This document shows positions 17,152-63,211 of a DNA stretch of 64,000 nucleotides, piece after piece; position 1 is the stretch's first letter; each line of letters opens with the position of its first letter. Source of the DNA: an uncultured Comamonadaceae bacterium. GTDB taxonomy: Bacteria; Pseudomonadota; Gammaproteobacteria; Burkholderiales; Burkholderiaceae_C. A program made the position numbers and the translations under genes. The notes under the pieces were generated by a model. The model made no database searches. It was not told the origin of the DNA and saw only the letters and a program-made list of their open reading frames with translations. The stretch covers positions 21,228 to 85,227 of the forward strand of contig CBKZAG010000001.1 of the NCBI GenBank assembly GCA_966692625.1. The letters run 5' to 3'.

Positions 17152-17184
17152 GGTCCCGCTTTCATCCCAACCCAAGGAGACATC

Positions 17185-44398: not shown

Positions 44399-44410
44399 GA
44401 GGTCTCCGCT

Positions 44411-44986: not shown

Positions 44987-45097
44987 GTGTGGGTCTTTGG
45001 AGTGTGTACGGATGGAAACGGCATTTGGATGCGCTTGTGTGGAGGCAACGGGCGATTCCACCCGTTGCGCGCCCTGCCAGGAAAGCAGAGCGGGCCG

Positions 45098-46855
45098 TCA
45101 GCGGGCACCCAGGGTGCTGGCTGTGGCCTCACTCGAGATGGGTGTGTTCCACGAATGGACGAATTGCTCGAACTCTGCGGCGGTCATGGGTTTGCCAATC
45201 AGGTATCCCTGAATCATGTCACAGCCATGGCTGTGCAGGAACGACTGCTGCGCCTCGGTCTCGACGCCTTCGGCCAGAACTTCCATGCGCAGATGGTGTG
45301 CCATCGAGATGACGCTGAGCGCTATACCCGCCGAGCCACTGTCGTGGATGATGTCCCTGATGAAACACTTGTCGATCTTGAGTTTGCTGACGGGCAGCTG
45401 TTTCAGATAACCCAGGCTCGAAAAGCCGGTGCCGAAATCGTCGATAGAGAAGTGGATCCCGAGGTGGCGCAGTCCCTCCAGCTTTTCCAGCGTACCTTCG
45501 ACACGGTCCATCATCACGGACTCGGTCAGCTCCAACTCCAGGCGGCTGGCGGGAAGTCCGGTTCGGCCCAGCACGCCCTGCACCATTTCAACGAAGTTGG
45601 GCCGCTGGACTTGCACGCCGGAAACGTTCACCGCCACCGGGCAGTCAAGCAGCCCTTGTTCAACCCAGAGCCGGTGTTGTTCACATGCGTTTTCCAGCAC
45701 CCATTCACCAACGGGAACGATCATTCCCGTTTCTTCAGCCAGGGGAATGAATATGTCGGGGCTGACAAAGCCATGTGCGGGTATTTGCCAGCGCAGCAAA
45801 ACCTCCAGGCCGCAGATTCGTCTGGTCTGGAGATCGAGTTGTGGCTGAAAGCGCAAGGAAAGCTGCTCTCTCGTCAACGCCTGACGAAATGCTGTGCGCA
45901 GCGAGAAGAGGTCCCTGTCACCCGCATGCAACTCGTCCAGTTCAAAACAGCCGCGGCCTGCGTATTTGGCTTTCTTCAAGGCCGCCTCGGCCCGGCGCAA
46001 GCACATGTCGGCGTCCTCATGCCCTGGGGCAACGAGTACCGCACCGAGGCTGGCCTTGCAGTCCACCGCCTGTCCTTCGATCACCACAGACTCCTGCAGG
46101 GTCGTCAGGATGTTTGCGGCCAACTGCCTCAACGTCGGCATGTCGGCCGCCTGGCTCTTGAGCAGGGCGAAATTGTCGCCCCCGATGCGGCCAACCGTGT
46201 CCGAAACATCGGCGTACTGCAGGAGGCGGCGGCCTGTCTCCGTCAACACGAGGTCTCCAACCTTGTGTCCATACGCCTCGTTCACATCCCTGAAGTGGTC
46301 CAGGTTCACCACCAATACGGCAGCGGGGCGCTGAAGGTCCCGCCCGCGCTCAAGCGCCTCGCCAAACCGGTCAAGAAACAGTTTGCGGTTGGGCAACTGG
46401 GTCAGGCTGTCTTGCACGGCACTTTTCAGTTGGCGCCGCTCCAGCTGAACGCGATCAGTGACGTCGCGCAAAACGCCGAGGACGTGGGTAATGATGCCGT
46501 TGGCGTTTTGCACGGGAACGATATTCAGCTCGTTCCAGAAAAGCCGCCCATCCTTGCGGTAATTGCGTATCACCACCTTGCACGGCACGCCCTGCCGAAT
46601 GGCCTCACGCAATACGGTGCGCTCGGGCTGGTCGCGGTCGGCTTCCTGGAGCATGCGGCAGTTGCGGCCGAGAATTTCCTCGGCTTTGTACCCGGTCATC
46701 TGTTCGAAACCGGGGTTGACAAAAATGACGGGTTGATCTTTGGCCTGTGCGTCCACCACCACGACGCTGTCGCTGGCGGCCAGCAAGAACGAGCGCCCGA
46801 GGTCATGCCAGGGCAGGGGAGGTAGACCGCTCGGGTTGGATTGCGCGCTGCTCAT
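45098..46855 (-). CDS. LOV(PAS)-GGDEF(degenerate, GGDNF)-EAL(EVL) protein; predicted blue-light-regulated c-di-GMP phosphodiesterase
   Basis: ORF 45098..47371, trimmed to the ATG at 46855. The LOV signature PVIFVNPGFEQMTGYKAEEILGRNCRMLQ...NYRKDGRLFWNELNI is present, with the Cys codon at 46658-46660. The GGDEF motif reads GGDNF (46169-46183). EAL-domain residues are present: EVL, NVS, ELTE, DDFGTG, KIDK, EGVE and QGY. Confidence 0.85.
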   Translation of the reverse strand: MSSAQSNPSGLPPLPWHDLGRSFLLAASDSVVVVDAQAKDQPVIFVNPGFEQMTGYKAEEILGRNCRMLQEADRDQPERTVLREAIRQGVPCKVVIRNYRKDGRLFWNELNIVPVQNANGIITHVLGVLRDVTDRVQLERRQLKSAVQDSLTQLPNRKLFLDRFGEALERGRDLQRPAAVLVVNLDHFRDVNEAYGHKVGDLVLTETGRRLLQYADVSDTVGRIGGDNFALLKSQAADMPTLRQLAANILTTLQESVVIEGQAVDCKASLGAVLVAPGHEDADMCLRRAEAALKKAKYAGRGCFELDELHAGDRDLFSLRTAFRQALTREQLSLRFQPQLDLQTRRICGLEVLLRWQIPAHGFVSPDIFIPLAEETGMIVPVGEWVLENACEQHRLWVEQGLLDCPVAVNVSGVQVQRPNFVEMVQGVLGRTGLPASRLELELTESVMMDRVEGTLEKLEGLRHLGIHFSIDDFGTGFSSLGYLKQLPVSKLKIDKCFIRDIIHDSGSAGIALSVISMAHHLRMEVLAEGVETEAQQSFLHSHGCDMIQGYLIGKPMTAAEFEQFVHSWNTPISSEATASTLGAR

Positions 46856-46871
46856 TGTTGTCTGTCCCGTT

Positions 46872-49268
46872 TCAATGATCCGCCGCGGTGCCTGTGCTCT
46901 CGTCTTGAGGTGCAGCAGCCGTTGGTGTCCGCAAACCATTGTCTGACAGAAGTGATCCGCTTGAAAGCCCTGGCGCGACAGTGCCAGAGGGCAGGCAGAG
47001 TTGCACGAGGGTGCCCTTGCCCGGCTCGCTGTGGATCTCCAGACTGCCACCGCACTGTTCGGCAAACGCCTGCACGATGGCCAGTCCCAGGCCAGAACCG
47101 CGTGCGTCCTTGGTCGAGAAGAACGGCTCACGGCACAGGCGCAATGTATTGCGGTCCATACCCAACCCGCTGTCGCGTATCTCGATGCACACGCGCTGCG
47201 GCTCCCATTGGACACCCACGCGCAGTTCCCCCCCTTTGGGCATGGCCTCGCAAGCATTGTCCAGCAACTGCGCCAGACTCTTCTCAAGCGCTTCAGGGTC
47301 GACATGGACGAAGGCTGGCGAAGCCGGAGCGTCCCACTGCAACTGGACTGCGCCGTGCTGGTGCGCGGCACGTTCGGTGGCCAGCCGTTGAAGCGTCGCC
47401 ACGACGTTGACCTTTTGGGCCCGCACAGGCAGATCGGGACTGCTGTAGCTGTTGCGCATGCGCTCTACGGTGATGGCCACATCTTCCAGGGCACTTTGAA
47501 TCTGGCGCAGCCGTTGGCGGCCTTTCTCGCTGAGGCCTTGCTCTGCTTCGATCAAGCGTTCCACGTACAGCGCCACAGGTGACAAGGCATTGTTGATGTC
47601 ATGCGCGACCTCGCGGGCCAGCCGCCCCAAGCTGCGCAGGTGCTGGTTTTCCAGATCACGCTCCTGCCGCCGCCGCAGGTCCTTGAACGCATCTTCCAAT
47701 GCCTCGCGCAATTGGGCCTGCCGCAGGCCCACACCAAGTTGCTGGGCCAGACGGATCAGGAAACTCTCCTCGCCGTGATCGAAGGGCGCCGCACTGCGCG
47801 CAACCAGCAGGAAACTCTCGCCCTGAGCATCCCGGAACACGGGACAACGGAACTGATGAGTCAGTCCACGCATCCTCAGAGAGGCTTCCAGGCCCTCCCA
47901 GTCGATTGCTTCTGTGCGCTCGTCTTGGATCGGCAAGGCCGAACCACCTACGTGCGCCAGGCCTTGCTCCCCCTCCAACAACACCTCGCAGTGGTCGGCA
48001 AAACCAATTCGGCGCGCGTTTTCTCCCAACAGGTCGGTGAGTTCCTGCGGCGCCAGCTGCTCCGCTATACCCGAACACAGCGCCAGCAGGAACTCCGTTT
48101 GGCGAAATTGGCTCTCGCGGGCGAACTCGGCCAGCTTGCGCTCCGTGATGAGCTTGCCGTAAATGTTGGCCATACCGGTGTCGGCGGCTGGCGCCACGTG
48201 CAGGCGGTACCACTCATCGCCCAACTGCATTTCCCACGCAGCTGCGCTGCCGTCAACCTCGGCGATCCGCTGCAGCGCTGCCCGCCAGTGGCCTTGGCCC
48301 CGGCCCTCGTCGCATTCCAGTGACTGACGCAACCGCGTCGCAGCAGGGTTGGCGTCATGCAGGCGGCCGTCCTTGTCCAGCCGCCACATGGGAAGCGGAC
48401 TTTCAATCACCAGACCGGCCAGGTCTTTCAGGTCCGCCAGCGTTTGCGCAAGCAAGCGTTGGACACGCCCCCGGCTTGTGGCCAGCCAGACGGCAACACC
48501 GGTACCGGCCGCCCAGCACAGCAAGGCCAGCGCCAGAGTCAGGTTCCAGATTTTGATATGAATGGATGCGCTGCGCGTCAGGTCCAGCTTCAAGCCAGGC
48601 AGCGCTTCCGATGTGTAGCGGGCTCTCAATATTGGTCCCCTCAACGCCCCGCCGGGAATGATGAGAATGCTGTGCCCGGTTTCGCTTTTCCATTCGAGCG
48701 TGCCTGCTTCTGGCAGACTGCGCCACAGCTTTTCAATCAGCTCAAGTGCAAGCGGGGTATAGGCATAGGCGCCCGTCAGCGCCAGTCCCGGCGGGCGGTA
48801 GGCCAGCACTGACCGCTGCGGGGCGTCAGGCATTTCCAGCAAAGCTGTCCAGACATGACTGTGAGGGTCGAGGGGCATGAGCCAACGAAGGTTTTCGGCA
48901 GCAGTTGTCTGAGCCTTGCCCTGCGCTATCGATGTCAACAGCTCTTCTCGCTGCTCAAACACGGCCTGCTCCAGGGTAATGCCGGCCGCGGCAATGAAAC
49001 CATCGGTGACTTTCTCGCCCAAGGCGACACGCTCGTTCCACGCCCATGCCAAGGCAACTGCGATGACAACCAGCAGCAGTGCGCTGCCAGCCAGCACCCG
49101 GCGCCACAGGTATCGAAGCGTGTCTGCGTAGGACATCGGCGCCATGTCGCGTTCATGCAGCTTCGCCGGGTTGGCATAAGGCCCGGCACCCTTGGGCTGT
49201 CCGGCGTGCGCGGTAACTGCCGCTTCAGCCTGTGATCGCGCTTCAGCATTCATTTGCATGATTCCCAT
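46872..49268 (-). CDS. Membrane sensor histidine kinase (two TM segments flanking an extracytoplasmic domain of roughly 190 aa, cytoplasmic sensory region, HisKA-HATPase)
   Basis: H-box VAHDINNALSP, N-box LLDNACEAM, G1 DSGLGM and G2 GSGLGLAI. Alternative starts lie at 49259 and 49253. It overlaps the 3' end of the upstream gene. Confidence 0.8.
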   Translation of the reverse strand: MGIMQMNAEARSQAEAAVTAHAGQPKGAGPYANPAKLHERDMAPMSYADTLRYLWRRVLAGSALLLVVIAVALAWAWNERVALGEKVTDGFIAAAGITLEQAVFEQREELLTSIAQGKAQTTAAENLRWLMPLDPHSHVWTALLEMPDAPQRSVLAYRPPGLALTGAYAYTPLALELIEKLWRSLPEAGTLEWKSETGHSILIIPGGALRGPILRARYTSEALPGLKLDLTRSASIHIKIWNLTLALALLCWAAGTGVAVWLATSRGRVQRLLAQTLADLKDLAGLVIESPLPMWRLDKDGRLHDANPAATRLRQSLECDEGRGQGHWRAALQRIAEVDGSAAAWEMQLGDEWYRLHVAPAADTGMANIYGKLITERKLAEFARESQFRQTEFLLALCSGIAEQLAPQELTDLLGENARRIGFADHCEVLLEGEQGLAHVGGSALPIQDERTEAIDWEGLEASLRMRGLTHQFRCPVFRDAQGESFLLVARSAAPFDHGEESFLIRLAQQLGVGLRQAQLREALEDAFKDLRRRQERDLENQHLRSLGRLAREVAHDINNALSPVALYVERLIEAEQGLSEKGRQRLRQIQSALEDVAITVERMRNSYSSPDLPVRAQKVNVVATLQRLATERAAHQHGAVQLQWDAPASPAFVHVDPEALEKSLAQLLDNACEAMPKGGELRVGVQWEPQRVCIEIRDSGLGMDRNTLRLCREPFFSTKDARGSGLGLAIVQAFAEQCGGSLEIHSEPGKGTLVQLCLPSGTVAPGLSSGSLLSDNGLRTPTAAAPQDESTGTAADH

Positions 49269-52200
49269 CAGATGCAGGCCGCGGTTCGACGCAGCGCCGC
49301 AAGACAGCGCTGAGTTCCTGAAGGCGAGGGGGTTTGTTCAACAGGTAGTCCACGCAGTCGGGGGGCGTACCCTGTTTGCTCAGGGCGTTGCCCCAGCCGC
49401 TCAGCATCACGATCCACATCTCTGGAGCAAGATCGCGGGCTGCCTTGGCCAGCTCTCCACCGTCCAGCCCTGGCATCCCCATGTCGGTGATCAGCACTTT
49501 GGGCAGGCTGTTGCTCGCCTTGGCTTGCCGCAACTGGGTCAACGCGGCGCCACCGCCCAAGGCCGTGCTGACCGTGTGCCCAGCTTCGCCGAGCACTTCG
49601 GCAAGGGAGCTCAGCAGCGCGGGCTCATCATCAACCAGCAATAACGACAAAGGCTGCCCTTCGGCCTGGTCAAGCGGCAAGGGGGCGGCAGCTTCCGAAA
49701 CCGGGGGAGGCTCCCCGCAGGGGAGCCAAATGGTCATTGTGGTGCCAGCGTCAGGCGCACTCTTGATGTCAAGGCGCCCTCGGTGCCGCTTCACTGTGCC
49801 ATCAACCATGGCCAAACCGAGCCCTGTGCCGCGCTCGCCTTTGGTGGTGAAGAAAGGGGCCAGACAGCGGGAAACGGTGTCCTCGTCCATGCCGCAGCCG
49901 TTGTCCTGTATTTCAACGCAGACCCCGTCCAGTCCGCCATCAGACTGGCGGCGGGTGCGCACATGCAAGCGGCCTTTGGCCGGCATGGCATCACAGGCGT
50001 TGACGACCAGGTTGGTCAGCGCATCCCGGATCTCGGCCTCAAAACCCATGAACGCCGGCAGGGCAGGCTCCAGTTCCATGTCAACCAGCACATCCCGTCC
50101 CTCCACTGCTGCCTGCTCTTGCCAGCGGGCCTCCATCAAGCCCAGTACCTGCTGCACAACGCTGTTGAGCCGCACAGCTTGGCGGGGCACATCCTCCTCA
50201 ACGCCACGTTGAAGTTGCCGCAGGCGGGTCACCGTGCCGGTGATGTCTTGGAGTGCTTTTTCCATGACCTTGAGCCGTTCGGCGCCACGCGTGCTCAAGG
50301 CCGGCTCGCTCTCGCTCAAGAGCCGCGTATGCAGCAACAAGGGCGACAAGCTGTTGTTGATGTCGTGGGCAATGCCGCTGGCCAGTTCGGCGCTCGCGCG
50401 CATGCGCTCCTGTTGCACCATTTGCCGCTGGCTGCGCTGCAGACTCATGTACGCCGACGTGAGTTCGTTTTGCAATTGGGCCTGACGTGCCGCCAGGGCT
50501 ACGTGTTCACCCAGCTGGATGAGGAATTCGCTGTCCGGGCTGCTGAAGGCGTCAGGCACATGGTGCGCCACGACCAGCAGACCATGCACTTGCTGGTCTA
50601 CCCGCAGGGGCACCACGATCGCACATTGGCAGCCGCAGTGCTCGATCAGGCCCAGAAAGTCATTTCTGGGGCGCAACTGTGCAACGTGACGTGGATGGCC
50701 ATCCAGAAATGGTGTGAGCAAGTCCACTGGCGGCACCGTGCCGATCATCAGTTGTTCACCGGCCACCTCCCCATGGGAGCCAACGACCCGCCACTCATCC
50801 GGTTGCGGCCCCCCCGCGAGCAGCAGGCACAAATCGGCTGGAAGATCGCGCCGCAGTGCACTGCAAACGGTTTGACCGAGTGCCCGCAGGCTCGACTGTA
50901 TGCCTATCGAACGCGTGATCTCGTTGAGCAACTGCAGGCGCGCGTTGTGCGCGGCTATCCGGGTGGCCGCCAGCTTCTGGCTGGTGATGTCTTGCAATGC
51001 GCCTTGCACTCTGACGATGCGTCCCTGGCCGTCCCGCTCGGCCAAACCGATGCTTCGCACCCAGCGAAGCTGGTCCCCCGAACCGGTCAACCGCACCTCC
51101 AGATCGTAGGGGGTACCTGTGGTCATGCAATCGCGCACGGCGCTGCGCACCCGGTCGCGATGGTCTGGGTGGTAGAGCGCAAGTGCCGTGTCCGGGTCAA
51201 TCTGCTGGCCCGCCTGCAAACCCAAGATCCGCGCGGCCTCTGCCGACAGATCGATCCGAAGATCCTGGATCTCCATGCTCCAGCCGCCCATCTGCGCGCA
51301 ACGTCCTGCCATCTGGAGTTGCGCCTCGCTGCGCCGAAGGAGGTCCAGCGTGCTGCGCAACTCCAGCGACCTTTGCACCAATTCCGCTTCGATCCGGTAG
51401 TTTCCATCCTGAAAGTCCACACCAGGTGGCGGATTGCCGCCAAAACGCTGCTGCACGTAGCCTGTCACGTCTTCGACCCGGTGCAGGATCAGCGCGATCT
51501 GCCCCTCGGCGTTGCGCACAGGCACGTTCAGCGGTGACCACCAGCGTTCCTCGAATACGCCGGAAGGCGTGCGAATCGGATAACGCTGCAGACCCATCGG
51601 ATCGGATTGGCCGCTTTCCATGAGACGGCGGAAGGACGCGCGCAGCGCTGCCACACCTTCTGCTTTCGGATCGTCCGGGTCGTCCGGCAAGACATCGAAA
51701 ATCGACCGTCCCACTATTGCAGCACGCTCGGTATACGTGGCCACCAGATAGGCTTGGCTTGCGCCCACGACGGTCAGGTCGTTCGCATCCAGCACCACGT
51801 AAAGACCTGGCGCTGCCTCAAAAAGGGCACGAAACTGCGCGCGCGCGGCCTCCGCTTCGGCCCTGGCCTGGCGCTCTTTGTCAAGCAGCAACAACCGCTC
51901 CTGCTCGATTCGGCGGCGTTCCGCCAGCTCCTGGCGCAGCGACTCCGTCCGCTCGGCGACCTGGCTTTCCAGGCTGTCGTTGAGTTGACGAAGTTCGTCC
52001 TGGGTGCGTTCAAGTTGCCCATTTCGTTGCACTGCCGCCTCGTAGGTTGCAAGCAACAGGTTGAGGATCTGCAGCCGGTCCGAGGTGATGAAAAACCGGC
52101 GGCCGGAGAACTGGATTTCCACGCCCATGCGGCCGTCTTCCTGCCCCAGCGGGTTGGCCAGCAGGAAGCGAACCCGTCCGATCAGGTAGTTTTCGTCAAA

Positions 52201-53534: not shown

Positions 53535-55672
53535 AACAGCCTCCGGATGGTCTGCAGCAACAACTCATTGTCGAACTCGCTTTTCATCAGGTAGGCATCG
53601 GCTCCAACCCGCAATCCATGATCCCGGTCCCGTTCGGTTTCCAGTGCCGTGACCAACACCACGGGCATGCCCGACCAGCGTTCGTCCTCGCGCACCTTGC
53701 TGGTGAGGCTGAACCCATCCAGCCGAGGCATGTCAACGTCGGACACGATCAGGTCAAAGCGGCCGCTTTGCAATGCCTGCACGGCTTCCAGCCCGTCGCA
53801 AACAGCATGGACGCGGTAGCCCGCGGCCTCCAGCAGCGTCGTCAGCAACATGCGTGAAGTGATCGAGTCCTCCGCCAACAGTATGCGAGGGCGCACACCG
53901 GCGCTTTCGTCCGGCTGTACCGGTGCGAGCCGGGTGCGAGTACGAGCGGCCTTTGCCAGCAGATCGGGCATGTGGAGAATGGGTAAAACCCCCCCTGTCA
54001 CGGGCAGAGCAACGCCAGCAATACCGCGCAGCCGCTTCAATGGGTGCCCCAGCGGGCGCTGAATCAACTCCTCCTCGCCTTCGATCGCATCCACAACCAA
54101 AAGAATGCGCCTCTCCTGGGTGCCTGCCAGCAGCGCCGGGCGGGTTTGCTCTGGCGGATGCGGTCTTGCCGGACTGCCCAAGAGAACCGCCAAATCGATC
54201 ACCGGCAAGGCAATGCCATCCATGGGCAAAACCGCTTGCCCATCTGCCTCGACCAGATCACCGCCGCGTACCGGGATGGCTCTTTGCGCCTGGTTGCTGG
54301 GCAGGCCCAATTGCATGGAACCCGCTGTCACACGAAGAACCCGGACACGGCTGCTGGTGACCGGGAATTGCAGCTCCCAGCGGCAGCCCCCCCCCGTTGG
54401 CTTGGTGTACCGGAGGCGGCCGCCGACGCGCTCGACACCATCACGGACCGCAGCCATGCCCAGTCCTCTGCCCGACAGCAGATCGGCCTGCTGGCGTGTG
54501 GACAAGCCCGGGGCACAGACCAATGCCAGCACCTCAGCTTCAGGGTCGTCGCCAATGCCGAGCGGCGAGCCGGGGAGGGCGGCAGCTCGCAGGGCATCAA
54601 CTTGCACCCCCCGTCCGTCATCCTCCACGGTCATGCTGACCCACCCTGCGGACATGCGGGCCGCACGCACGCACAAGCGCCCACGCTCCGGTTTTCCTTG
54701 TGCGCGCCGCTCGCCTGGTGTCTCAATGCCATGATCCACCGCATTGCGCAACAGGTGCATCAAAGGGTCCGCCATCGCTTCAATGAGCCGGCGGTCAACC
54801 TGCAGATCCTGTCCCTCGAACACCAGTTCAAGCTGTTTTCCACACGCCTGCGCGAGGTCGCGCACTTGGGCTGGCAACTGCTCGAACAGGTTGCTGACCG
54901 GCTGCAGCACGATCCGCTGTGTCTGGCCCAGCAAGCTTGCAACATGGCGCCGCAGACCGTCGTGCCGTTCCGCTTCCGCTCTGCTGTACCGTACCAGGCG
55001 GCGCTCCAGGTCTGCGACCTGCAGTTGAACCGCCTCCACTGCATCGCTTGCCCGGCCGGCTTGCAGCGCCTGGCGCAGCGAGGTGAGTTCCTGGCCTGCT
55101 TGGGCCAGTTCCGAGCGGGCGCCATGCCAAGCCTCGCTGAATGTATAGAGACTTTCGGCCTCGTCCAGCAGAAGCTGCGCCTGGTCGGTATCGAGCCGCA
55201 AATGGTCACGCCTTCGCATGGGCGGTTCTGCGATCAGCGGCGCAACGCCCTCTGGTTTGCCTGCGGTGCCGGTGGCAAGCGCCGCCGTCAACTGCCCGCG
55301 CAGCGACTGGATTTCGTCACTGAGCGAAGCGCTGGCAGCCTCGTCGGTCAACAAGCGCTCAAGCATGCGCACGCTGGTGCGCAGCAAGTCGGCGCTCTCC
55401 GCCAAGCGCATGGGGGCGTCGCGCAGCCGACCCAGGCGGTCCTCCAGCGCATGGCACAGGGCTTCAATATCGCGCCGCGCTGCGGCCCGTGCCGCGCCCT
55501 TGAGGCTGTGTGCAGCGGAGTAGGCACGCAAAACGGCTTCACCAGCCTGCTCCGTGGTCGGGCTGGATTCAGCCACCAGGAGTTGGGCTGAAAGCTCCTC
55601 AGCACGCTCCCGCGCCTCGCTGCGGAAGATTTCCTGCAGGCGTGCCAAGGTGGCCGGATTGATGGAGGGCAT
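53531..55672 (-). CDS. cheA: CheA-type histidine kinase fused to a C-terminal receiver (CheA-REC, WspE-like)
   Basis: Hpt motif AAHSLKGAARAA, kinase N-box LLRNAVDHGIE, G-boxes DDGRGV and GRGLGM, a CheW-like P5 region, and a C-terminal REC (ILLAEDS...IVSDVDMPRLDG...DAYLMKS). Confidence 0.85.
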   Translation of the reverse strand: MPSINPATLARLQEIFRSEARERAEELSAQLLVAESSPTTEQAGEAVLRAYSAAHSLKGAARAAARRDIEALCHALEDRLGRLRDAPMRLAESADLLRTSVRMLERLLTDEAASASLSDEIQSLRGQLTAALATGTAGKPEGVAPLIAEPPMRRRDHLRLDTDQAQLLLDEAESLYTFSEAWHGARSELAQAGQELTSLRQALQAGRASDAVEAVQLQVADLERRLVRYSRAEAERHDGLRRHVASLLGQTQRIVLQPVSNLFEQLPAQVRDLAQACGKQLELVFEGQDLQVDRRLIEAMADPLMHLLRNAVDHGIETPGERRAQGKPERGRLCVRAARMSAGWVSMTVEDDGRGVQVDALRAAALPGSPLGIGDDPEAEVLALVCAPGLSTRQQADLLSGRGLGMAAVRDGVERVGGRLRYTKPTGGGCRWELQFPVTSSRVRVLRVTAGSMQLGLPSNQAQRAIPVRGGDLVEADGQAVLPMDGIALPVIDLAVLLGSPARPHPPEQTRPALLAGTQERRILLVVDAIEGEEELIQRPLGHPLKRLRGIAGVALPVTGGVLPILHMPDLLAKAARTRTRLAPVQPDESAGVRPRILLAEDSITSRMLLTTLLEAAGYRVHAVCDGLEAVQALQSGRFDLIVSDVDMPRLDGFSLTSKVREDERWSGMPVVLVTALETERDRDHGLRVGADAYLMKSEFDNELLLQTIRRLL

Positions 55673-55682
55673 GAGGCGGCCT

Positions 55683-57398
55683 TCAGATGCGGTACCGCTT
55701 GATCATGGTTTCGATGTCGCGGCCGAGCTCGTCGAGCTGGCGTGCGGCTTCCTCCGCTCGGCGCGCCACGGCAACGTTCTGCGTGCTGGCTTCGCGGATG
55801 TTCTGCATGGCCAGCGCCACCTGGTCGCTGCCAACCAGCTGCTGCTCACTGGACTGCGCAATCTGCGCGGCCGCGTCCGCAGCCTCCGCGATGGTCTGCG
55901 TCAGCCGCGCAATCACCTCGCCAGCCTCGGCCGACTGCTGCATTCCGCGCTCCACCGCCTTGCCCCCTTGTTCGCTGGCAAGCACCGCTGCCTGCGTCGC
56001 CTTGTGCATCTCCTGCAACAGGCCACGCACCTGTGCCGTCGCCTGGCGTGACTGCTCCGCCAGGCTGCGCACCTCCTGCGCCACCACCGCAAACCCCTTG
56101 CCTTGTTCACCCGCCTTGGCAGCCTCGATCGCCGCATTGACAGCCAACAGGTTGGACTGGTCGGCCAGACCATTGACCAGTGTCGTGATCTCACCAATGG
56201 CCAGACCGTGCTGGCTCAGCCGGCTGACGCTGTCACTGATGTGCAGCATCTGGGCCTGGATCTGGCGCATGCCTTCGACGCTGGCCTCCACCGCGGCACG
56301 CCCGCCGTGGGCCACAGCCGTCGCCTGCTGCGAGTCCTGCGCAACGCGGCGGGCACGCTGGCTGGCCAGTTCCGCCGTGCGTTTGACTTCTTCCACGGTC
56401 GAGGTCGTCTCCACGATCGCACTGCTCGTCTCGGACGCACCGGCCGCCACCTGGGAGGCGGAGGCCAGCATGTCCGCTCCGACCTCGCTGAGCTGGTTGA
56501 CCCCGTCACTCAACGCCCGCGTCGAGCGCCTCAGCTCGTCGACCATGGACACGAACGCCTTGCCCAGCTGGTCACGTTCGGACAAGGGTTTGACCTCCTT
56601 GCTGAGGTCCCCTTCGGCAATACGCTGGGCAACCTCTGCCATGCGGCGCATGCCGTCCTGCACACCTTTGAACGCATTCAGAAGTTTCCCAATCTCGTCC
56701 CGTCTCGGCCTGATGTCCAGTTCGGTGCGGTCTTGCGTGTCCCCTTCGGCCAGCCGGTTGGCGACCTGGGTGAGTGCAACAAGTGGCTGAGCCGTGATGC
56801 GGGTGATCCACGCCGCCGCCATGGCGGCCACTGCAACGGCAGCCACCGTCAGGATGATCAAGCCGTCGCGAGCGTTTTCAGAAAGTTGTTGCGCCTGTTC
56901 TTTCGCCTGATCGTCGAGCCGCTGGTACGCCCCCCGGAGCTGCTGGTAAATCTGCATCTGCGGGCCGAACAAAAGCTGTCTGGCTTCTTCAGCCCGTCCC
57001 GCCACCAGCGCAGGCAGCACCCCCTCTCGCCGGATCTGGCGCCATTCTTGAGTGCCCCGTTTGATTTCGACGAGTTGTGTTTTGAGCGAGGGAAACTCCT
57101 GCAATATCTGCTCCAGTTGCACTCGCAACTCATCGTGGGAACCCTCAAGTGCTGAAATTTCTGCAGGCAGTCCGGTTCGGGCAAAGTCAGAGTCCTCCAG
57201 TCCGGTGAGCGTAAGTGCCCGCCCCAGGTGCAGGGTGCCATCCAGGTTTGCCACCAGAGTGCTGATCTCTCCCACTTGCTGAACCTTGCCCAGATTGCGC
57301 CATGCATTGACAGCCAGCACCCCCATCAAGACCAGGACCAGTCCAAAACCCAGCATCAAACGTGGGCCTGTTCGTAAGTCACCAAGATAGTTGAGCAT
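55683..57398 (-). CDS. Methyl-accepting chemotaxis protein (2 TM segments, periplasmic 4-helix-bundle-like sensor, HAMP, MCP signalling domain)
   Basis: The highly conserved hairpin-tip region [40 protein letters not shown] is present. TM segments lie near aa 12-33 and 186-208. Confidence 0.9.
55691..56540 (-). repeat. Copy A of an 850-bp direct repeat (3' half of the first MCP gene)
   Basis: It sits at a constant 1738-bp offset from copy B. The real-frame translations, and the alternate-frame ORFs (55742..56140 vs 57480..57878; 55913..56197 vs 57651..57935; 56216..56509 vs 57954..58247), are identical. I saw only one dinucleotide difference (55717-55718, tc vs ct). Confidence 0.9.
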
Positions 57399-57420
57399 GG
57401 GAGCCTTTCAGATGAGAGAA

Positions 57421-59019
57421 CTAAAACTGGTACCGCTTGATCATGGTTTCGATGCTGCGGCCGAGCTCGTCGAGCTGGCGTGCGGCTTCCTCCGCTCGGC
57501 GCGCCACGGCAACGTTCTGCGTGCTGGCTTCGCGGATGTTCTGCATGGCCAGCGCCACCTGGTCGCTGCCAACCAGCTGCTGCTCACTGGACTGCGCAAT
57601 CTGCGCGGCCGCGTCCGCAGCCTCCGCGATGGTCTGCGTCAGCCGCGCAATCACCTCGCCAGCCTCGGCCGACTGCTGCATTCCGCGCTCCACCGCCTTG
57701 CCCCCTTGTTCGCTGGCAAGCACCGCTGCCTGCGTCGCCTTGTGCATCTCCTGCAACAGGCCACGCACCTGTGCCGTCGCCTGGCGTGACTGCTCCGCCA
57801 GGCTGCGCACCTCCTGCGCCACCACCGCAAACCCCTTGCCTTGTTCACCCGCCTTGGCAGCCTCGATCGCCGCATTGACAGCCAACAGGTTGGACTGGTC
57901 GGCCAGACCATTGACCAGTGTCGTGATCTCACCAATGGCCAGACCGTGCTGGCTCAGCCGGCTGACGCTGTCACTGATGTGCAGCATCTGGGCCTGGATC
58001 TGGCGCATGCCTTCGACGCTGGCCTCCACCGCGGCACGCCCGCCGTGGGCCACAGCCGTCGCCTGCTGCGAGTCCTGCGCAACGCGGCGGGCACGCTGGC
58101 TGGCCAGTTCCGCCGTGCGTTTGACTTCTTCCACGGTCGAGGTCGTCTCCACGATCGCACTGCTCGTCTCGGACGCACCGGCCGCCACCTGGGAGGCGGA
58201 GGCCAGCATGTCCGCTCCGACCTCGCTGAGCTGGTTGACCCCGTCACTCAACGCCCGCGTCGAGCGCCTCAGCTCGTCCGCCAGGTGTGCAAAAGCGCGC
58301 GCCAGCTCACCCATTTCGTCATACCGCTGCGTAAGTGTTTCTGGCACGGCAACACCCAGCTCCCCGCGTCCGAGCCGAACCGCTACCGCCCCGAGGTGCG
58401 CCAGTGGCACAGTCGTCTGGCGAGTCAGACCCAGACTGACCAGCACGGCAAGAACTACCGCGCCAGAGGTGAATGTCAACAGGTGTGTGCGTATGTCCGA
58501 TGTGAGCCGGTCCGCAGATTCCTCCGCAACCCGGTCGAGACGTAAAAAAGCTTCTCGCAAATCCATGTAGCGCTGCTGCAGCGCACCCGTGATGAGCTGT
58601 CCAGCTTCCTCCTGCCGTCCGCTGCTCAACGCGGGTATCACCTGCTGACCCCGGATGCGCCGCAAGTCCGCCAATTTGCTTTCCAGCTGGCCCAACTCGG
58701 TGCGCAATTCAGGCCAGTCCACCGTAAGGTCCCGCACCCTCGCGACTCGCTGGTCGTTCAACTCTTGTAGCTGTGCAAGCTCGTCCGGCAGGGCCTGGCG
58801 CTCGGAAGAATTTCCATTGAAAGCTGTCAGCACAAGCGTTCGGCTCTGATGCAGGTTGCTGTCCATGGCCGCCACCAGGCGGCGTACGTCACCAACCGCC
58901 TGTATCGCGCTCACGTCTCGATAACTGGCCAGGACCTGGGTGATCATGAGAACGAGCAGCAAGCCAAAACCGAGCAGAAGCCGGTGAGCGATGCGCAAGT
59001 GAAGCAACGGGTTTGTCAC
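57421..59019 (-). CDS. Methyl-accepting chemotaxis protein (second receptor; divergent sensor half, identical signalling half)
   Basis: ORF 57421..59151, trimmed to the GTG at 59019 (GTGA overlap with the cheW stop). N-terminus [25 protein letters not shown] parallels the N-terminus of the first MCP. The C-terminal 283 aa are identical to the first MCP except for the last few residues. Confidence 0.85.
57429..58278 (-). repeat. Copy B of the 850-bp direct repeat (3' half of the second MCP gene)
   Basis: See copy A. Identity ends abruptly at 58278/56540, which is the HAMP/signalling-domain junction (codons for ...DELRRS). Confidence 0.9.
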
Positions 59020-59561
59020 TGGGCTTCTCCGGTGGACTCCTGCCATTCGCCCAACGCCGGGTCGGACAGAAGCTGGTTCACGTCTATGTGCAGCAGTTCC
59101 CCCTCGATGACTCCGAGCAGCCACGGAGGAGGGGGCCGATGGGCGGGCCATTCGAGGGCCTGTGCCGGGTCAAGCAGGCGCAGCCCTTCCACCTTGGTTG
59201 CCAGCAAGGCGCAAACTTGCTTGCCTTCTCCAACCACGAGCAGCAAAGGGCTTTCAGCCAGTCCGCTCTGGGGGAGGTCCAGCAGCGGGCGCAGGTCCAG
59301 CACCACCAGCACACGCCCCCCCACCGCAGCCAGCCCGTTCAAATGAGGCGGGAGCATCGGCAACGCGGCGATGTCCCGCAGCGGGCGAACCTCCTTGAGG
59401 CTTTCAACCGACACGGCAAAACGGGAAGCGCCCACACTGAACACTGTCATGGGTACCCGCCCGGTGGAGGCATCCTCCTTCGCCAGGGGTTGTGCGAGGA
59501 GGTCGGCCCGGCGTTGCAGCAAGGCCTGTGTGCCGGTGTCGAGGGCACTGGTCGCAGTCAT
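59016..59561 (-). CDS. cheW: CheW-like coupling protein (WspD-like position)
   Basis: CheW-domain pattern [19 protein letters not shown]...[28 protein letters not shown]. It forms an ATGA overlap with the cheR stop. Confidence 0.8.
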
Positions 59562-60829
59562 GACGCGGTCTCCTTGGCCTGCGGGCCGGGCAGCCCCAAC
59601 GCCTGCCGCAGCTTGCGCTGCGCCCGGCTGTCACCTGCGGCGCTTTCCAACTGCCAACGCGCCACTTGAGCCATATGCAGGTGGGGGTCCAGAAACAGCG
59701 CCCGGCGAAAAGCCTGCAAAGCGGCCGCAGACCTCTGCTGGCTCTGCAAGATCATTCCTTCAAGCAAATAACGTTCAGCGGTGGGTGACGCACTCGACAG
59801 CCGCCGCAACGCCCCCTCATAGTCGCCTCGATCAGCCAACGCCCGGACCTCTGCGAGAGGATCGTTCACCGCTTGTGATGCGGGCGCGACAGCGGCTGGC
59901 CGAAGTGGCAAGGCCGCAGTGCCCCGCAAGGGCCGCGAAAGCGGTGGCAAAGCCGCCTTCGGCGTCGCCACTGCTTCCAGCGCCCTGGCGGTGCCCGCCG
60001 CCTTGCGGTGCAACAGCCAGGGGTCCAACCCGTCACTGGCGAAAGGGTGCCCGCCCATTGCGGCGCAACCCAGTTCAGCCGCGCCCAATGCCAAGCGCCC
60101 ATCAGAGGCGAGTGCCTTCGCCGCTCGATCCAACACCAAAGCCAGCTTGTCCTCGTTGAGGTAAATCAGAACGTTGCGGCACAGAATGAAGTCCCAGTGC
60201 GGCTCCTGGCGCTCGGGACCGGGCCACTTGTCGTCGATCAGATTGACCAGCTCAAAACGTACCAGTTCGCGTATGGCAGGGAGCACCTCGAAACGTCCAT
60301 CGCCTTGCAGACGGAGACAGTCCTGGAGCAGCCACTGTGGAGGTGTGCGAAGAGACCACGCGCCGTAGCTGGCGCGCCGTGCCTGCGCGATGAAACGTGC
60401 GTTGACATCCACTCCCAGAACCTGCGCCCGCGGCCCCAACCCCACCCGGTGCAACAGCGCGGCCACAGAGTAGGCCTCTTCACCCGTGGCGCATCCCACA
60501 CTGAGGATGCGAAGCACCTGTTGGGGTGCGGCACGCTCCAGCCAGCGCGGCAGCAGATCATCCTTCAGCACGTCAAAAGCTCGCGGTTCGCGCATGAAGT
60601 AGGTTTCACCAATGGTCAGTTCGTCGAGCACACATTGCTTCTCGCCGTCGCTCAGCCGCTCCAACAGCAAAGCACTGGCGGACTCTGCAATGGACGCGCC
60701 CCTGTGCTCTGCCAAGGCAGCAAGTCCACGGTGCAAAGCGCTGTCACTGAGCTGGCCAGCGGCAAAGCCCAGCCAGCGTTCGCAGCTTTCACGCACCTGG
60801 GCCATCAACTCCGCGGACAACCGGGTCAT
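59558..60829 (-). CDS. cheR: CheR-type chemoreceptor methyltransferase with a C-terminal TPR-like extension (WspC-like)
   Basis: ORF 59558..60898, trimmed to the ATG at 60829 (ATGA overlap). The motifs ETYFMREPRAFDVL and SAM-binding ILSVGCATGEEAYS are present. The C-terminal roughly 100 aa are TPR-like (ALRRLSSAS...YLLEGMILQSQQRSAAALQAFRRALFLDP). Confidence 0.85.
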   Translation of the reverse strand: MTRLSAELMAQVRESCERWLGFAAGQLSDSALHRGLAALAEHRGASIAESASALLLERLSDGEKQCVLDELTIGETYFMREPRAFDVLKDDLLPRWLERAAPQQVLRILSVGCATGEEAYSVAALLHRVGLGPRAQVLGVDVNARFIAQARRASYGAWSLRTPPQWLLQDCLRLQGDGRFEVLPAIRELVRFELVNLIDDKWPGPERQEPHWDFILCRNVLIYLNEDKLALVLDRAAKALASDGRLALGAAELGCAAMGGHPFASDGLDPWLLHRKAAGTARALEAVATPKAALPPLSRPLRGTAALPLRPAAVAPASQAVNDPLAEVRALADRGDYEGALRRLSSASPTAERYLLEGMILQSQQRSAAALQAFRRALFLDPHLHMAQVARWQLESAAGDSRAQRKLRQALGLPGPQAKETAS

Positions 60830-61287
60830 GCGCCCCTCCCGCCACGTTCTGCCAGAACGGCATCCAGCTGAGACAACTCCTGCGTATCCAGCAAGCACCC
60901 GGGGTTTCGCAGAAGCATCACCCCTTGAGACCTGGAGGTGACTCCCAGCCAGCCTGGCGCGTCAACCGTCAGAGGCAGCCAGGCCTCGGGAGGGCACTCA
61001 AACACATCCCCGACTTCTTCCACCCAGATGGCCAGCCTGCGCTGGCCCTGAACGCAAACCAGACGGTGCTCCGGACAGGGCGTCAGGCTCCCAGGCTCCT
61101 CGTGGAGGGAAATCACGGGCAGGGCTTCACCATGAAGGTTGAGCAAACCGCGAACTCGAGGAGGGGCGCCAGGCAAGGGGATCAGCGCAACAAAGTGCAA
61201 CACACGTTCCACCTGTTCAACGGGGATGGCCCATTGCAGCGGCGGGCAGCGCAGAGTGAGCCATCCAATTGACCCTGGAGGATTCAT
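60826..61287 (-). CDS. CheW-like domain protein (WspB-like position)
   Basis: Pattern WAIPVEQVERVLHFVALIPLPGAPPRVRGLLNLHGEALPVISL. It forms an ATGA overlap with the upstream gene's stop. Confidence 0.7.
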   Translation of the reverse strand: MNPPGSIGWLTLRCPPLQWAIPVEQVERVLHFVALIPLPGAPPRVRGLLNLHGEALPVISLHEEPGSLTPCPEHRLVCVQGQRRLAIWVEEVGDVFECPPEAWLPLTVDAPGWLGVTSRSQGVMLLRNPGCLLDTQELSQLDAVLAERGGRGA

Positions 61288-62468
61288 TCGGCCAGCCTTT
61301 CTCCCGTCCCTTGAACAGGGAGCTTGACAGCAAACACGGCACCCACGCCCTGTTTCGCGCGTGCGCTCACCGACCCGCCGTGCCGCTCAACAATGCGCCG
61401 AACCGTTGCCAGGCCCATGCCTATGCCCTCGTAAGGTCTCTCGACAGGCAAGCGGTGAAAGGGTACGAACAACTGGGCACCTTGTGTCTCGTCAAAGCCA
61501 ATACCGTTGTCTCTCACTTCTATCTGCAGCCACTCGCCGTGACGTGCGCCTTCCACTTCGACGTGAGCGGTCTCGCAGCCATCGGTGAACTTGACCGCGT
61601 TTGTCAGCAAGTGCGTGAAGGCATGACGCAGCAATTCTCTGTCGCACTCCACAACAGGCAGGCTTGCGAAGACCCAACGTATTTCCCTCACGCCCTGGAC
61701 CTTCCGCAAGGTATCGCTACCGCGAATCTCGTGCATCAATGACAAAAGATCCACGGGTTCTGTCTGCAAAGGCTGGTTCGAGATGAGCTCATAGGCCTTG
61801 ACATCAGAGAGGACGTCTTCGATGTGCCCCAGCGTCGACACAAGCGTGGCGCTCCATTGCACAGGGGATGCACCGCTATCGGTCCCTCCTATGTCACCAG
61901 CGAGATTCAGCAGACGCTGCAGCGGCCCCTGCAGCACCTGGAAGATCCCCGAGAGAAAGTTCTTCAACTCCCCGTGCTTCTCGTCCAGTCCACGAGCCTG
62001 TTGCTCCAGCTGTTGGCGCAGTTCACGATTCGTCATGCGCAGCCGCCGCAACTCCAGGGCACGACGGATCACGGGAGTGATGGCGCTCAGGCGAAACGGC
62101 TTCAGCACATAATCGACCGCGCCCGCACGCATGGCGGTGATGGCCGTCTCCAGGCTGCCATGCCCCGTCATGAGTACCGGGGCGATGTCGGCATCAATAC
62201 GCAGCGCCTCGGTCATGAGTTCGATGCCGCTGAGCTCCGGCATCATCAGGTCACACAACAGCACATCAAAACGCTGCGCTTCCAACTGCTCCAGCGCCTT
62301 GCGAGGATGCTCGTGGCCTACCACCTCAAAACCCGACTCTTCAAGCAACTCGCACAACGCCTGAAGCTGTGGCAATTCATCGTCCACCACAAGCAGCCGC
62401 GCACTCAAAGGATCAGCCAGACGGTCCCATGCGTTACTGGCAACAGCGGGGGAGAGCAAGGAGTTCAT
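61284..62468 (-). CDS. REC - DHp-like - HATPase protein whose H-box carries Gln in place of the phospho-acceptor His (pseudo-histidine-kinase candidate)
   Basis: ORF 61284..62507, trimmed to the ATG at 62468. REC motifs LLVVDDE...LLCDLMMPELSG...DYVLKP are present. The H-box position reads FLSGIFQVLQGPL (CAG codon at 61938-61940), against the consensus F..xxSH(D/E)LxxPL. The ATP-binding N, G1, F and G2 boxes are intact (LLTNAVKF, DNGIGF, FVPFHR, GIGMGLA). Confidence 0.8.
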   Translation of the reverse strand: MNSLLSPAVASNAWDRLADPLSARLLVVDDELPQLQALCELLEESGFEVVGHEHPRKALEQLEAQRFDVLLCDLMMPELSGIELMTEALRIDADIAPVLMTGHGSLETAITAMRAGAVDYVLKPFRLSAITPVIRRALELRRLRMTNRELRQQLEQQARGLDEKHGELKNFLSGIFQVLQGPLQRLLNLAGDIGGTDSGASPVQWSATLVSTLGHIEDVLSDVKAYELISNQPLQTEPVDLLSLMHEIRGSDTLRKVQGVREIRWVFASLPVVECDRELLRHAFTHLLTNAVKFTDGCETAHVEVEGARHGEWLQIEVRDNGIGFDETQGAQLFVPFHRLPVERPYEGIGMGLATVRRIVERHGGSVSARAKQGVGAVFAVKLPVQGTGERLAE

Positions 62469-62563
62469 GGGTTGAGCGTAGCCCCGCCCTGGTTCGCACA
62501 CCACCATGGTTCACCGGACGCCCTTGTCAGGTTACCCCCTACAAATCGGCAAAGGTGAAACGT

Positions 62564-63211
62564 TCAATCGCCGATCAGGTTGTGGCGCACCGCGAAACGC
62601 ACGAGCCCGGCCAGGTCATGGATGTCCAGCTTCTCCATCAGGCGGCTGCGGTAAGTTTCGACCGTCTTGACCGAGAGCCCCAGCCGGCTGGCAATATCGT
62701 TCGACGTCAGACTGGAGGCGAGCATGCGCAGCACCTCCACTTCCCTGGGGCTGAGGCTTTCCAGAGGGTCGTCGGGCGTTCCCTCCGCGAGCCGCCTGGC
62801 CAACTCCGCGGCCAGCGTGGGGGCCAGGAAGCGGCCACCCCGCGCGACTGTGCGTATGGCACTGATCGTGTCGCGCGCAGCACAGGACTTGTGCACATAT
62901 CCCCCGGCACCGGCCTTGAAGGCGCGGTGGACATGCTCCACATCGTCCAGCATCGACAGCACCAGGATCCGGCATTGACGGTCCACCTCCCGGATGCGGG
63001 CCGTCAGTTCGATCCCGCTGAGGCCGGGCATGAGGATGTCCACCAACACGAGATCGGGTTGCATATCCCGGGCCATCTGGAGCGCTGACACCCCATCGGT
63101 TGCCACGCCCAGCACCTCGATATCGGGCTGTTCGGCGAGAAGGGCGCACAACGCCGCCGCGACCACCTCGTGGTCATCTGCGATCAGGACTCTGACGGGC
63201 GCCATCACCAT
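62564..63211 (-). CDS. NarL/FixJ-family response regulator (REC + LuxR-type HTH)
   Basis: REC (VLIADDHE...LVDILMPGLSG) plus HTH (LSPREVEVLRMLASSLTSNDIASRLGLSVKTVETYRSRLMEKL). The start is 63211 or 63205, overlapping the upstream kinase stop. Confidence 0.85.
   Translation of the reverse strand: MVMAPVRVLIADDHEVVAAALCALLAEQPDIEVLGVATDGVSALQMARDMQPDLVLVDILMPGLSGIELTARIREVDRQCRILVLSMLDDVEHVHRAFKAGAGGYVHKSCAARDTISAIRTVARGGRFLAPTLAAELARRLAEGTPDDPLESLSPREVEVLRMLASSLTSNDIASRLGLSVKTVETYRSRLMEKLDIHDLAGLVRFAVRHNLIGD

Follow-up and report, generated by a model that had tools for sequence, protein, structure and literature searches.

The question raised by this stretch of DNA, a window of 64,000 nucleotides from an uncultured Comamonadaceae bacterium (contig CBKZAG010000001.1, positions 21,228 to 85,227), is where the signal of a chemosensory array goes when its genes are packed together with several sensor kinases and a light-sensing enzyme of cyclic di-GMP (c-di-GMP) turnover. 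To our knowledge, non-flagellar chemosensory pathways are common in genomes and only a handful of them (Wsp, Che3, Frz and Dif) have been worked out. The original prediction, made from the letters of the sequence, had described the block as a Wsp-like operon rewired into a multi-kinase phosphorelay with the light-sensing enzyme at its end. The comparative analysis favours a different reading, to which we give somewhat better than even credence and which is built on homology and analogy: the receptor array would signal through a chain of sensor kinases, from CheA to the hybrid kinase g9 and on to the receiver-pseudokinase g1, and not through the flagellar motor.

The cluster consists of eleven open reading frames (ORFs) at 45098–62468, all on the minus strand and with high third-position GC, whose domains were assigned by Pfam:

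61284–62468, minus strand: g1, receiver-pseudo-histidine kinase with REC and HATPase_c domains and no HisKA match in Pfam; Gln177 in place of the H-box His
60826–61287, minus strand: g2, CheW paralogue 1 (in the WspB position); Pfam CheW, E 7e-16
59558–60829, minus strand: g3, CheR methyltransferase with a C-terminal TPR-like tail; Pfam CheR, E 5e-36
59016–59561, minus strand: g4, CheW paralogue 2 (in the WspD position); Pfam CheW, E 1e-16
57421–59019, minus strand: g5, 4HB-HAMP-MCPsignal receptor with two transmembrane segments; the extra copy of this genome
55683–57398, minus strand: g6, 4HB-HAMP-MCPsignal receptor with two transmembrane segments; the ancestral copy
53531–55672, minus strand: g7, CheA-REC hybrid, Hpt-HATPase-CheW-REC in Pfam
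52533–53534, minus strand: g8, CheB methylesterase; Pfam CheB_methylest alone, with a degenerate N-terminal receiver
49243–52536, minus strand: g9, hybrid kinase, REC-linker-PAS-PAS-GAF-HisKA-HATPase-REC in Pfam
46872–49259, minus strand: g10, membrane sensor histidine kinase with two transmembrane segments; HATPase_c, and HisKA below the Pfam cut-off
45098–46855, minus strand: g11, PAS/LOV-GGDEF(degenerate)-EAL without a receiver; motifs GRNCRMLQ, GGDNF and EVL

These assignments agree almost item by item with the eleven genes and domains that had been listed. They bear out a non-flagellar cluster resembling the ACF (alternative cellular function) class, with a CheA-REC, two CheW paralogues and a CheR whose TPR-like tail gives sub-threshold matches. 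They also bear out the absence from the cluster of a REC-GGDEF output and of a stand-alone CheY, and the presence of extra kinases and of a receiver-less LOV-type EAL protein. According to Pfam, neither the block nor its surroundings encode a free Hpt protein. In the NCBIfam scan the equivalog cut-offs were passed by none of the proteins, which leaves them without a curated name, and none of the cluster genes carries a frameshift or premature stop. Overlaps of 4 nucleotides (nt; ATGA or GTGA) occur at six junctions (g1/g2, g2/g3, g3/g4, g4/g5, g7/g8 and g8/g9), and gaps of 22, 10 and 16 nt separate g5/g6, g6/g7 and g10/g11, such that the statement that all junctions are 4-bp overlaps or gaps of at most 22 bp holds for nine of them but not for g9/g10, where, with the g10 start at 49259 or 49253 as kept in a close relative, the overlap with the g9 stop is 17 or 11 nt. 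Start codons were picked by upstream context and by conservation in that relative. A downstream start for g10 (Met42 or Met45, leaving a gap of 97 nt) was discarded, as these codons are not ATG in the relative, and so was the upstream ATG at 62507 as a start for g1, as an in-frame TAA comes after it there.

Is this a rearranged Wsp operon or a type of its own? The comparison set comprised 83 distant CheA-REC loci (30–42% identical), three found via protein look-ups and eighty via a metagenome scan with an alignment of CheA, and their domains were mapped by phmmer with pieces of the window's own proteins as queries. The series CheW-CheR-CheW-methyl-accepting chemotaxis protein (MCP) directly precedes CheA in 31 of the loci, most of the remaining loci ending at contig edges, and CheB follows CheA in 68, with a receiver detectable in 67 of the 68 CheB proteins. 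Where loci were inspected gene by gene, the first CheW matched g2 best and the second g4. The CheR homologues in three of the loci (L018, L020 and L021) are CheR-TPR proteins; the TPR matches of g3 itself lie below Pfam cut-offs (TPR_2, E 6e-4; TPR_1, E 2e-3). The gene after cheB, recognisable in 58 loci, is receiver-first in every one. Its receiver is followed in 49 by a linker of the g9 type (homologous to g9 residues 130–225), a histidine-kinase core is present in 40, often with another receiver behind it, and GGDEF-EAL comes after the linker in four. Neither the Wsp gene order nor a WspR-type (REC-GGDEF-only) gene occurs in any of the 83 surveyed loci.

The cluster follows the same order, with a second receptor added: CheW, CheR, CheW, two MCPs, CheA and CheB, and then, in g9, the receiver and linker of the family. 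Classed by gene content, the cluster belongs to a widespread and little-studied ACF-type subfamily of the form CheW-CheR(TPR)-CheW-MCP-CheA(REC)-CheB-[receiver-fused output]. That the receptors lie between the second CheW and CheA is, judged from these sequences, the normal order of this subfamily and not that of a rearranged Wsp operon; of the claim that the receptors had been duplicated and moved between the D- and E-like genes, the duplication stands but the move does not, the order being the standard one of the 31 loci. The window CheB does depart from the subfamily, which has a canonical receiver there. Receiver-fused histidine kinases, and not cyclases or CheY, are the commonest outputs of this subfamily, and such clusters are therefore front ends for kinase cascades, of which the present one is a compact example. 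The proposal that three additional kinases stand in place of WspR has to be given up in this form: g9 is a family-typical output gene, and it and g1 (a REC-pseudokinase) are the multidomain response regulators of the window cluster. Four features appear, by comparison with the surveyed sequences, to be lineage-specific, namely the receiver-pseudokinase with its His to Gln change, the CheB with a degenerate receiver, the recent receptor duplication and the receiver-less LOV-GGDNF-EAL protein.

Which gene takes up the signal of CheA? All three phosphosites of g9 are present (D59, H724 and D1018), and its residues 1–225 are 42–53% identical to the post-cheB genes of L018, L020, L021 and L108 (47–51% for the receiver only), whereas a g9-like kinase from an island lacking Che genes (L024) has a receiver at only 27% identity. 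On these identities the N-terminal receiver of g9 belongs to the Che-output group, and g9 would be the normal output gene of the cluster, the counterpart of WspR, and a probable target of CheA. The module of approximately 95 residues that follows the output receiver (g9 residues 130–225, at 51862–52146) matches no Pfam family and is found in the same 49 of 58 loci whatever output comes after it. It starts with the short segment GVEIQFSGRRFFITSDRLQILNLLLATYEAAV, and continues as a charged, probably helical (coiled-coil-like) stretch. The 5' position of g1 had made it a candidate for a direct target of CheA like WspH or WspR; this was rejected, the g1 receiver being approximately 30% identical to family output receivers versus 47–51% for the N-terminal receiver of g9.

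Despite an intact receiver (D29/D30, D73, T101 and K123) and an ATP-binding domain (HATPase_c, E 6e-24) with its N, G1 and G2 boxes in place (TNAVKF, DNGIGF and GIGMGLA), g1 lacks the phospho-accepting His of a histidine kinase. In alignment A1 it reads IFQVLQGP for IAHDLRxP, the H-box His (Gln177), the adjacent acidic residue and the Arg all being changed. Gln177 aligns with a His in seven homologues, Gln is also found in the 81% identical orthologue P0251, and all of the more distant, His-containing homologues keep a HisKA match. The closest receiver to that of g1 (66%) is the version in an island without Che genes. Genes of the g1 type recur beside g9-like kinases elsewhere: a His-containing one comes right after such a kinase in L078 (CheA-CheB-REC-[GAF-HK-REC]-[REC-HK], HK denoting histidine kinase; 39% identical to g1), another follows in L108 (CheB-[REC-GAF-HK-REC]-[REC-HK]; 47% identical), and in L038 a g1-type receiver fused to GAF-PAS-HD_5 comes after the output kinase. 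It is because of this recurrence that transfer from the g9 core to the g1 receiver is proposed.

The L108 genes (6557–11110) form an orphan trio with no CheA, CheW, CheR or MCP gene nearby. Leaving orthologues aside, no gene comes closer to the g9 N-terminus than its middle one (53%), and among His-containing relatives its last gene is the nearest to g1 (47%).

The third kinase, g10, has transmembrane segments at residues 58–76 and 245–263 (numbering of the 798-residue ORF) that enclose a periplasmic domain of approximately 168 residues; its cytoplasmic region is uncharacterised. Its H-box reads AHDINN with His553 (numbering of the 795-residue form), the g10 start codon is kept in L016, and the H-boxes of g9 and g10 are alike (AHDINNxLSP). 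In L024 a g10-like kinase adjoins a g1-like gene. This locus (6358–18470) and L107 (10001–21239) are islands with the same gene set and no Che genes: a g1-like REC-kinase, a REC-HD_5 protein, a short ATPase, a PAS-LOV-GGDEF-EAL-REC protein, a REC-HisKA_3 kinase, a NarL-type regulator and a large REC-PAS-GAF g9-like hybrid kinase. They are a recurrent module of several kinases and c-di-GMP enzymes, apparently undescribed, and, as far as gene content can tell, the Che module of the window is joined to a two-component gene set that also occurs without Che genes.

The transmembrane segments of g5 lie at residues 14–32 and 180–198, and the receptor arm from hairpin tip to C-terminus has 141 residues, a length that suggests the class of approximately 40 heptads. 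The 3' blocks of g5 and g6 (57429–58278 and 55691–56540) are identical at 848 of 850 nt (99.8%) and the 5' sensor-coding parts have diverged; along its whole length g6 shares 87% identity with the only MCP of the relative (L016/L017), which has no counterpart of g5. Near-identical 3' ends, diverged sensors and a relative with a single MCP together suggest that the duplication is recent or that gene conversion keeps the signalling domains alike. CheA (g7) has its Hpt His55, an ATPase, a CheW-like P5 domain and its REC Asp645, and H55, D602, D645, T675 and K697 are invariant in alignment A3. In CheB (g8) the catalytic Ser155, His182 and Asp275 are present, and the N-terminus aligns with the family CheB receivers with the Asp kept, but the acidic pair (with a 7-residue insertion), the Thr/Ser and the Lys are lost.

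What the light-sensing protein contributes can be read from its motifs. The best PDB matches for the N-terminal domain of g11 are short LOV proteins (E 4e-39), NCBIfam assigns it to the YtvA family (4.5e-37), and the adduct-forming Cys66 lies within GRNCRMLQ, corresponding to the motif GXNCRFLQ. At the place of the I-beta Gln g11 has Leu129, and its orthologue P0122 a Ser. In its GGDEF domain g11 reads GGDNF, where the orthologue has GGDTF, and cyclase activity is therefore not expected. The EAL domain (Pfam, 1.9e-68) has all of its motifs, E(A/V)L, N, ELTE, DDFGTG, KID, EGVE and QG, with motif residues invariant in alignment A2. Taken together, the motifs predict that g11 is a receiver-less c-di-GMP phosphodiesterase under blue-light control. 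Hundreds of natural LOV receptors lack the I-beta Gln, for the most part having Leu, Ile, Ser or Thr instead, and of these a diguanylate cyclase has been tested and works (PMC9098866); such receptors are expected to work, and g11 looks, by its motifs, like a working LOV-EAL protein. The nearest homologues (43–48% identical, alignment A2) have a further PAS domain at the N-terminus and a REC domain at the C-terminus, both missing in g11, and the PAS-LOV-GGDEF-EAL-REC genes of the L024 and L107 islands are 44–45% identical to it (tblastn). No LOV Cys motif was found in the PAS domains of the 83 surveyed Che loci; a LOV protein beside this Che family therefore seems specific to this lineage.

The relative in which these features could be followed, at approximately 82–85% protein identity, is represented by four short contigs that carry HisKA_3 kinase-NarL-g1-g2, then CheR-CheW-MCP-CheA-CheB-g9-g10, and g10-g11-IS66; protein by protein the identities to the window range from 69% to 91%. 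The neighbourhood is thus conserved in this relative, bar the duplicated receptor gene. Ka/Ks (Nei-Gojobori, against the relative) is 0.05–0.14 in every gene with Ks above 1, and the odd members do not stand out: it is 0.09 in g1, 0.09–0.15 in the pseudokinase domains, 0.14 in the CheB pseudo-receiver and 0.07 in the degenerate GGDEF. By this measure all of the genes are under purifying selection, the cluster is kept as a unit and its unusual members are not decaying; with Ks above 1, the tight linkage has outlasted saturating synonymous divergence. In sequence the CheA-REC stands apart. Among 5.8 billion clustered proteins, g7 has only two clusters above 45% identity, its own and one at 85%, all others being at or below 42%, and the lineage that carries the system is therefore very sparsely sampled. 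A genome scan with the single CheA protein gave remote matches only (at most 33% identity) in Acidobacteriota, Planctomycetota and a Labilithrix metagenome-assembled genome, and tblastn against plasmids gave 32–34% matches alone, in alphaproteobacterial replicons.

How far the unit extends is a further question, and four features at its ends bear on it:

63205–64000, minus strand: 3' part of a HisKA_3-type histidine kinase gene (Pfam HisKA_3 and HATPase_c), running off the window end
62564–63235, minus strand: NarL/GerE-type DNA-binding response regulator (Pfam Response_reg and GerE)
62495–62550, minus strand: conserved non-coding block, lying between the gene of the NarL-type regulator and g1; a promoter, operator or leader candidate
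45045–45092, minus strand: two GC-rich stem-loops right after the g11 stop; possible 3' end or stabiliser of the transcript

The NarL-type regulator, 91% identical to its L026 orthologue with a Ka/Ks of 0.045, is the sole DNA-binding output gene adjoining the cluster, and the HisKA_3 kinase, whose orthologue in the relative (L026) has 475 residues, is its probable cognate kinase. The pair lies upstream of g1 in the relative as well, and in three distant clusters (L037, L038 and L105) a PAS-HisKA_3 kinase, a REC-GerE regulator and a single-domain receiver directly precede the first cheW, the same order as HisKA_3 kinase-NarL-g1-CheW in the window. Because the pair is kept in the relative and recurs upstream of these three distant clusters, the functional unit is probably larger than eleven genes and comprises thirteen, and the eleven-gene boundary first drawn was probably too narrow.

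The non-coding block is 82% identical to L026 over 56 nt, versus 54–55% at the third codon positions of the flanking genes. It is a promoter or operator candidate that the NarL-type regulator may bind. RNA structure was considered as a reason for its conservation and found unsupported, the fold being no more stable than that of shuffled sequences (z = −0.1). The stem-loops after g11 fold at −42.6 kcal/mol (z = −2.6) and have no U tract. Scans for consensus promoters and terminators within the block gave match counts at or below those in shuffled sequence. The conserved stretch before g1 and the hairpins after g11 are suggestive of regulatory sites at both ends of the block.

Beyond the hairpins, genes for an ECF sigma factor and an RskA-type anti-sigma factor (43589–44986, same strand) follow g11 after a gap of 111 nt, likewise in the near-identical strain L025. 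In the 82% relative (L022) IS66-family genes, not the sigma pair, come after g11, and because they take its place there the pair is probably outside the unit. The rest of the window (1–43500) holds chiefly plus-strand ORFs, including, by homology to L025, those for a peptide-type ABC transporter, an amidohydrolase and a cytosine/purine permease. This part has no genes for flagella, pili or exopolysaccharide from which a target of the cluster might be guessed, and Rfam and tRNA scans of the whole window gave no matches.

From the domain content, motif states, gene order, conservation and comparative patterns observed, a circuit can be proposed whose transfer steps are all inferred. Two receptors with different periplasmic 4HB sensors and near-identical signalling domains would, by their domain content, share one array with two CheW proteins and CheA, and CheR would methylate and CheB demethylate them. 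Phospho-feedback from CheA to CheB is probably absent because the CheB receiver is degenerate. CheA would autophosphorylate at His55; from there, as homology and the Che3 precedent suggest, the phosphoryl group would go to Asp59 of g9 and also to the receiver at the C-terminus of CheA itself, which would serve as a sink. The g9 core, also reading its two PAS domains and GAF domain, would then phosphorylate its own C-terminal receiver and, judging from gene adjacency elsewhere, most likely that of g1, which g10, as a second and membrane-borne input, may feed too. With its His replaced by Gln, g1 cannot pass the phosphoryl group on and would act by binding, by allostery or as a phosphate sink. 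The HisKA_3 kinase and the NarL-type regulator, by their recurrent adjacency, would be the likely transcriptional output. Under blue light g11 would lower c-di-GMP, its tie to the cascade being co-expression, perhaps together with protein contact, and not phosphotransfer.

Several points weigh against this kinase-chain circuit. The partners are assigned from homology and gene adjacency, which do not fix specificity, and for the receiver of g1, at approximately 30% identity to the family output receivers, the partner could instead be g10, the HisKA_3 kinase or a kinase from outside the region. A receiver ends g9, and no free Hpt is encoded nearby for onward transfer. The end features described above only hint at a single transcript across the block, and the role of g11 in the circuit would rest on its linkage in two related genomes. 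Since the closest other CheA relatives are 35–42% identical, the transfer of function from the family is a long extrapolation.

Some of the same observations would also be expected if the region were a mosaic of independent adjacent modules (g2–g9, g10 with g1, the HisKA_3/NarL pair, and g11) with no common signal flow. Clusters of Che and REC-kinase genes exist without homologues of g1, g10 and g11 (L018, L020 and many others), the kinase and LOV-EAL island exists without Che genes (L024 and L107), the g1 receiver is closest to the version from such an island, and the IS66-family genes beside g11 in the relative suggest a mobile neighbourhood. This view nevertheless strikes us as unlikely, as overlapping stop and start codons join the modules at g1/g2, g8/g9 and g9/g10, the arrangement survives at Ks above 1 in the relative, and both g1-type genes (L078, L108 and L038) and HisKA_3/NarL pairs (L037, L038 and L105) recur by Che clusters of the family.

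The linear phosphorelay of the original prediction, in which one 11-gene operon would bring chemoreceptor signal and light together on g11 with c-di-GMP as the output, fares a little worse and is regarded as doubtful. The genes are indeed tightly packed or overlapping, the g10–g11 linkage is kept in the relative, and c-di-GMP outputs recur in the family, as REC-linker-GGDEF-EAL in L021, L035, L051, L053 and L090, REC-GGDEF-EAL in L056, REC-PAS-GGDEF-EAL in L043 and L057, and REC-GAF-PAS-HD_5 in L038; the nearest homologues of g11 moreover carry a receiver and sit in kinase operons. Every one of these c-di-GMP output enzymes in the family bears its own receiver, whereas g11 has none, and with no phospho-accepting His in g1 and no stand-alone Hpt no phosphoryl route to g11 can be drawn, and a relay ending in the light-sensing enzyme is not supported. 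The degenerate GGDNF motif would also leave hydrolysis alone to be controlled.

A more speculative idea, for which we see a rather slim chance, is that phosphotransfer has been replaced by phosphorylation-gated contact, the g1 pseudokinase, once phosphorylated on its receiver by the chemoreceptor-driven cascade, binding and regulating the LOV phosphodiesterase g11. The operon-like islands of L024 and L107 each encode a g1-type REC-kinase with its His intact together with a LOV-GGDEF-EAL protein that ends in a receiver; in the present lineage the His and the receiver are both lost, and this paired loss is the most interesting point left by the analysis. If there were such a contact, c-di-GMP hydrolysis would need both a chemical input and blue light, a natural two-input gate made from a pseudo-histidine kinase, and the cluster would offer a new wiring from two-component to second-messenger signalling and possibly an optogenetic part; if not, it would be one more variant among many complex signalling islands.

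That the cluster is a decaying relic is very improbable: four separate departures from canonical motifs within one cluster (the Gln-for-His kinase, the receiver-less CheB, GGDNF and the Gln-less LOV) might be taken as steps towards loss of function, but there are no frameshifts or premature stops, Ka/Ks is low for all genes, a lineage at a distance of Ks above 1 has preserved the same or equivalent substitutions, and degenerate GGDEF domains beside active EAL domains, like Gln-less LOV domains (PMC9098866), are known to be functional.

How the preferred chain from CheA through g9 to g1 relates to known systems is best seen from Rhodospirillum centenum Che3, where the first receiver of the hybrid kinase CheS3 is a substrate of CheA3-REC, and CheY3 is in turn phosphorylated by CheS3 and not by CheA3 (PMC3868531). 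By locus tag (RC1_2133, RC1_2127 and RC1_2124), CheY3 and CheS3 are at opposite ends of that cluster with CheA3 between them (PMC2890560). By its published description (PMC3868531, PMC4436063 and PMC2890560), Che3 shares with the present cluster the two CheW proteins, CheR, CheB, MCP and CheA-REC hybrid, a second hybrid kinase that is receiver-first with PAS, and a receiver gene at one cluster end with an extra kinase at the other. The two differ in that CheS3 combines REC-REC-PAS with an HWE-type kinase core and ends without a receiver, whereas g9 is REC-PAS-PAS-GAF with a HisKA core and a C-terminal receiver, and in that CheY3 is a single-domain receiver, whereas the present cluster has no stand-alone receiver and the g1 receiver is fused to a His-less kinase. 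Che3 further has one MCP, no membrane kinase and no LOV-EAL gene.

The Wsp cluster of Burkholderia cenocepacia has no WspR and carries the REC-kinase WspH at its 5' end (PMC8552884). In Wsp systems of this type (PMC8552884 and PMC4324302) the REC-histidine kinase matches g1 in position and gross architecture, but WspH is a kinase predicted to phosphorylate an unknown regulator, whereas g1 has no His. Burkholderia Wsp also keeps the wspA–F synteny with the MCP first, in contrast to the MCPs of the window between the second CheW and CheA, and the output-like receiver of the window is on g9, downstream of cheB and far larger than WspH, and not on the 5' gene. Pseudomonas Wsp (WspA–F and WspR) shares a CheA-REC hybrid, a CheR with a tail that is TPR or TPR-like, two CheW-like proteins, a non-flagellar character and a link to c-di-GMP. 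It differs in its order, wspA(MCP)-B(CheW)-C(CheR)-D(CheW)-E(CheA-REC)-F(CheB) versus CheW-CheR-CheW-MCP-MCP-CheA-CheB, and the present cluster lacks a REC-GGDEF output and a working receiver on CheB. Where Wsp has a phosphorylation-activated cyclase, the c-di-GMP enzyme of the window is a receiver-less phosphodiesterase.

A survey from 2012 found CheR-TPR genes mostly in clusters with response regulators that fuse REC to kinase, GGDEF, EAL, PAS, GAF or REC domains, and equated these with the ACF class (PMC3447774). The present cluster shares with them the receiver fused to HisKA/HATPase, PAS, GAF and a further REC, and has a CheR with a TPR-like tail; of the two response regulators, g9 carries the receiver fused to HisKA/HATPase, PAS, GAF and a further REC; the survey is a catalogue and gives no mechanism. 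The Flm pathway of Comamonas testosteroni was considered as a betaproteobacterial precedent and set aside, being of the Tfp class, without CheB and CheR and with single-domain receivers. For g11, the LOV-GGDEF-EAL photoreceptors (Synechococcus elongatus SL2, as cited in PMC10396304) have the same domain order, with g11 differing in being placed inside a chemosensory and kinase cluster, and many of the natural glutamine-deficient LOV receptors (PMC9098866) have Leu for the Gln, as does g11, in which the adduct Cys is present.

Given Che3, WspH and the 2012 catalogue, the claim that no characterised system has this composition was too strong for its core idea, that of a CheA-REC feeding receiver-fused kinases. 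The cluster still raises the questions of how a His-less receiver-pseudokinase signals, how the array adapts if CheB is not phosphorylatable, and whether light and chemoreceptor inputs come together on c-di-GMP. Set against the known systems, it is not a categorically new circuit: what is known is an ACF-type chemosensory cluster with a hybrid-kinase output, and what is new is its combination with a His-less kinase and a receiver-less, blue-light c-di-GMP-degrading enzyme.

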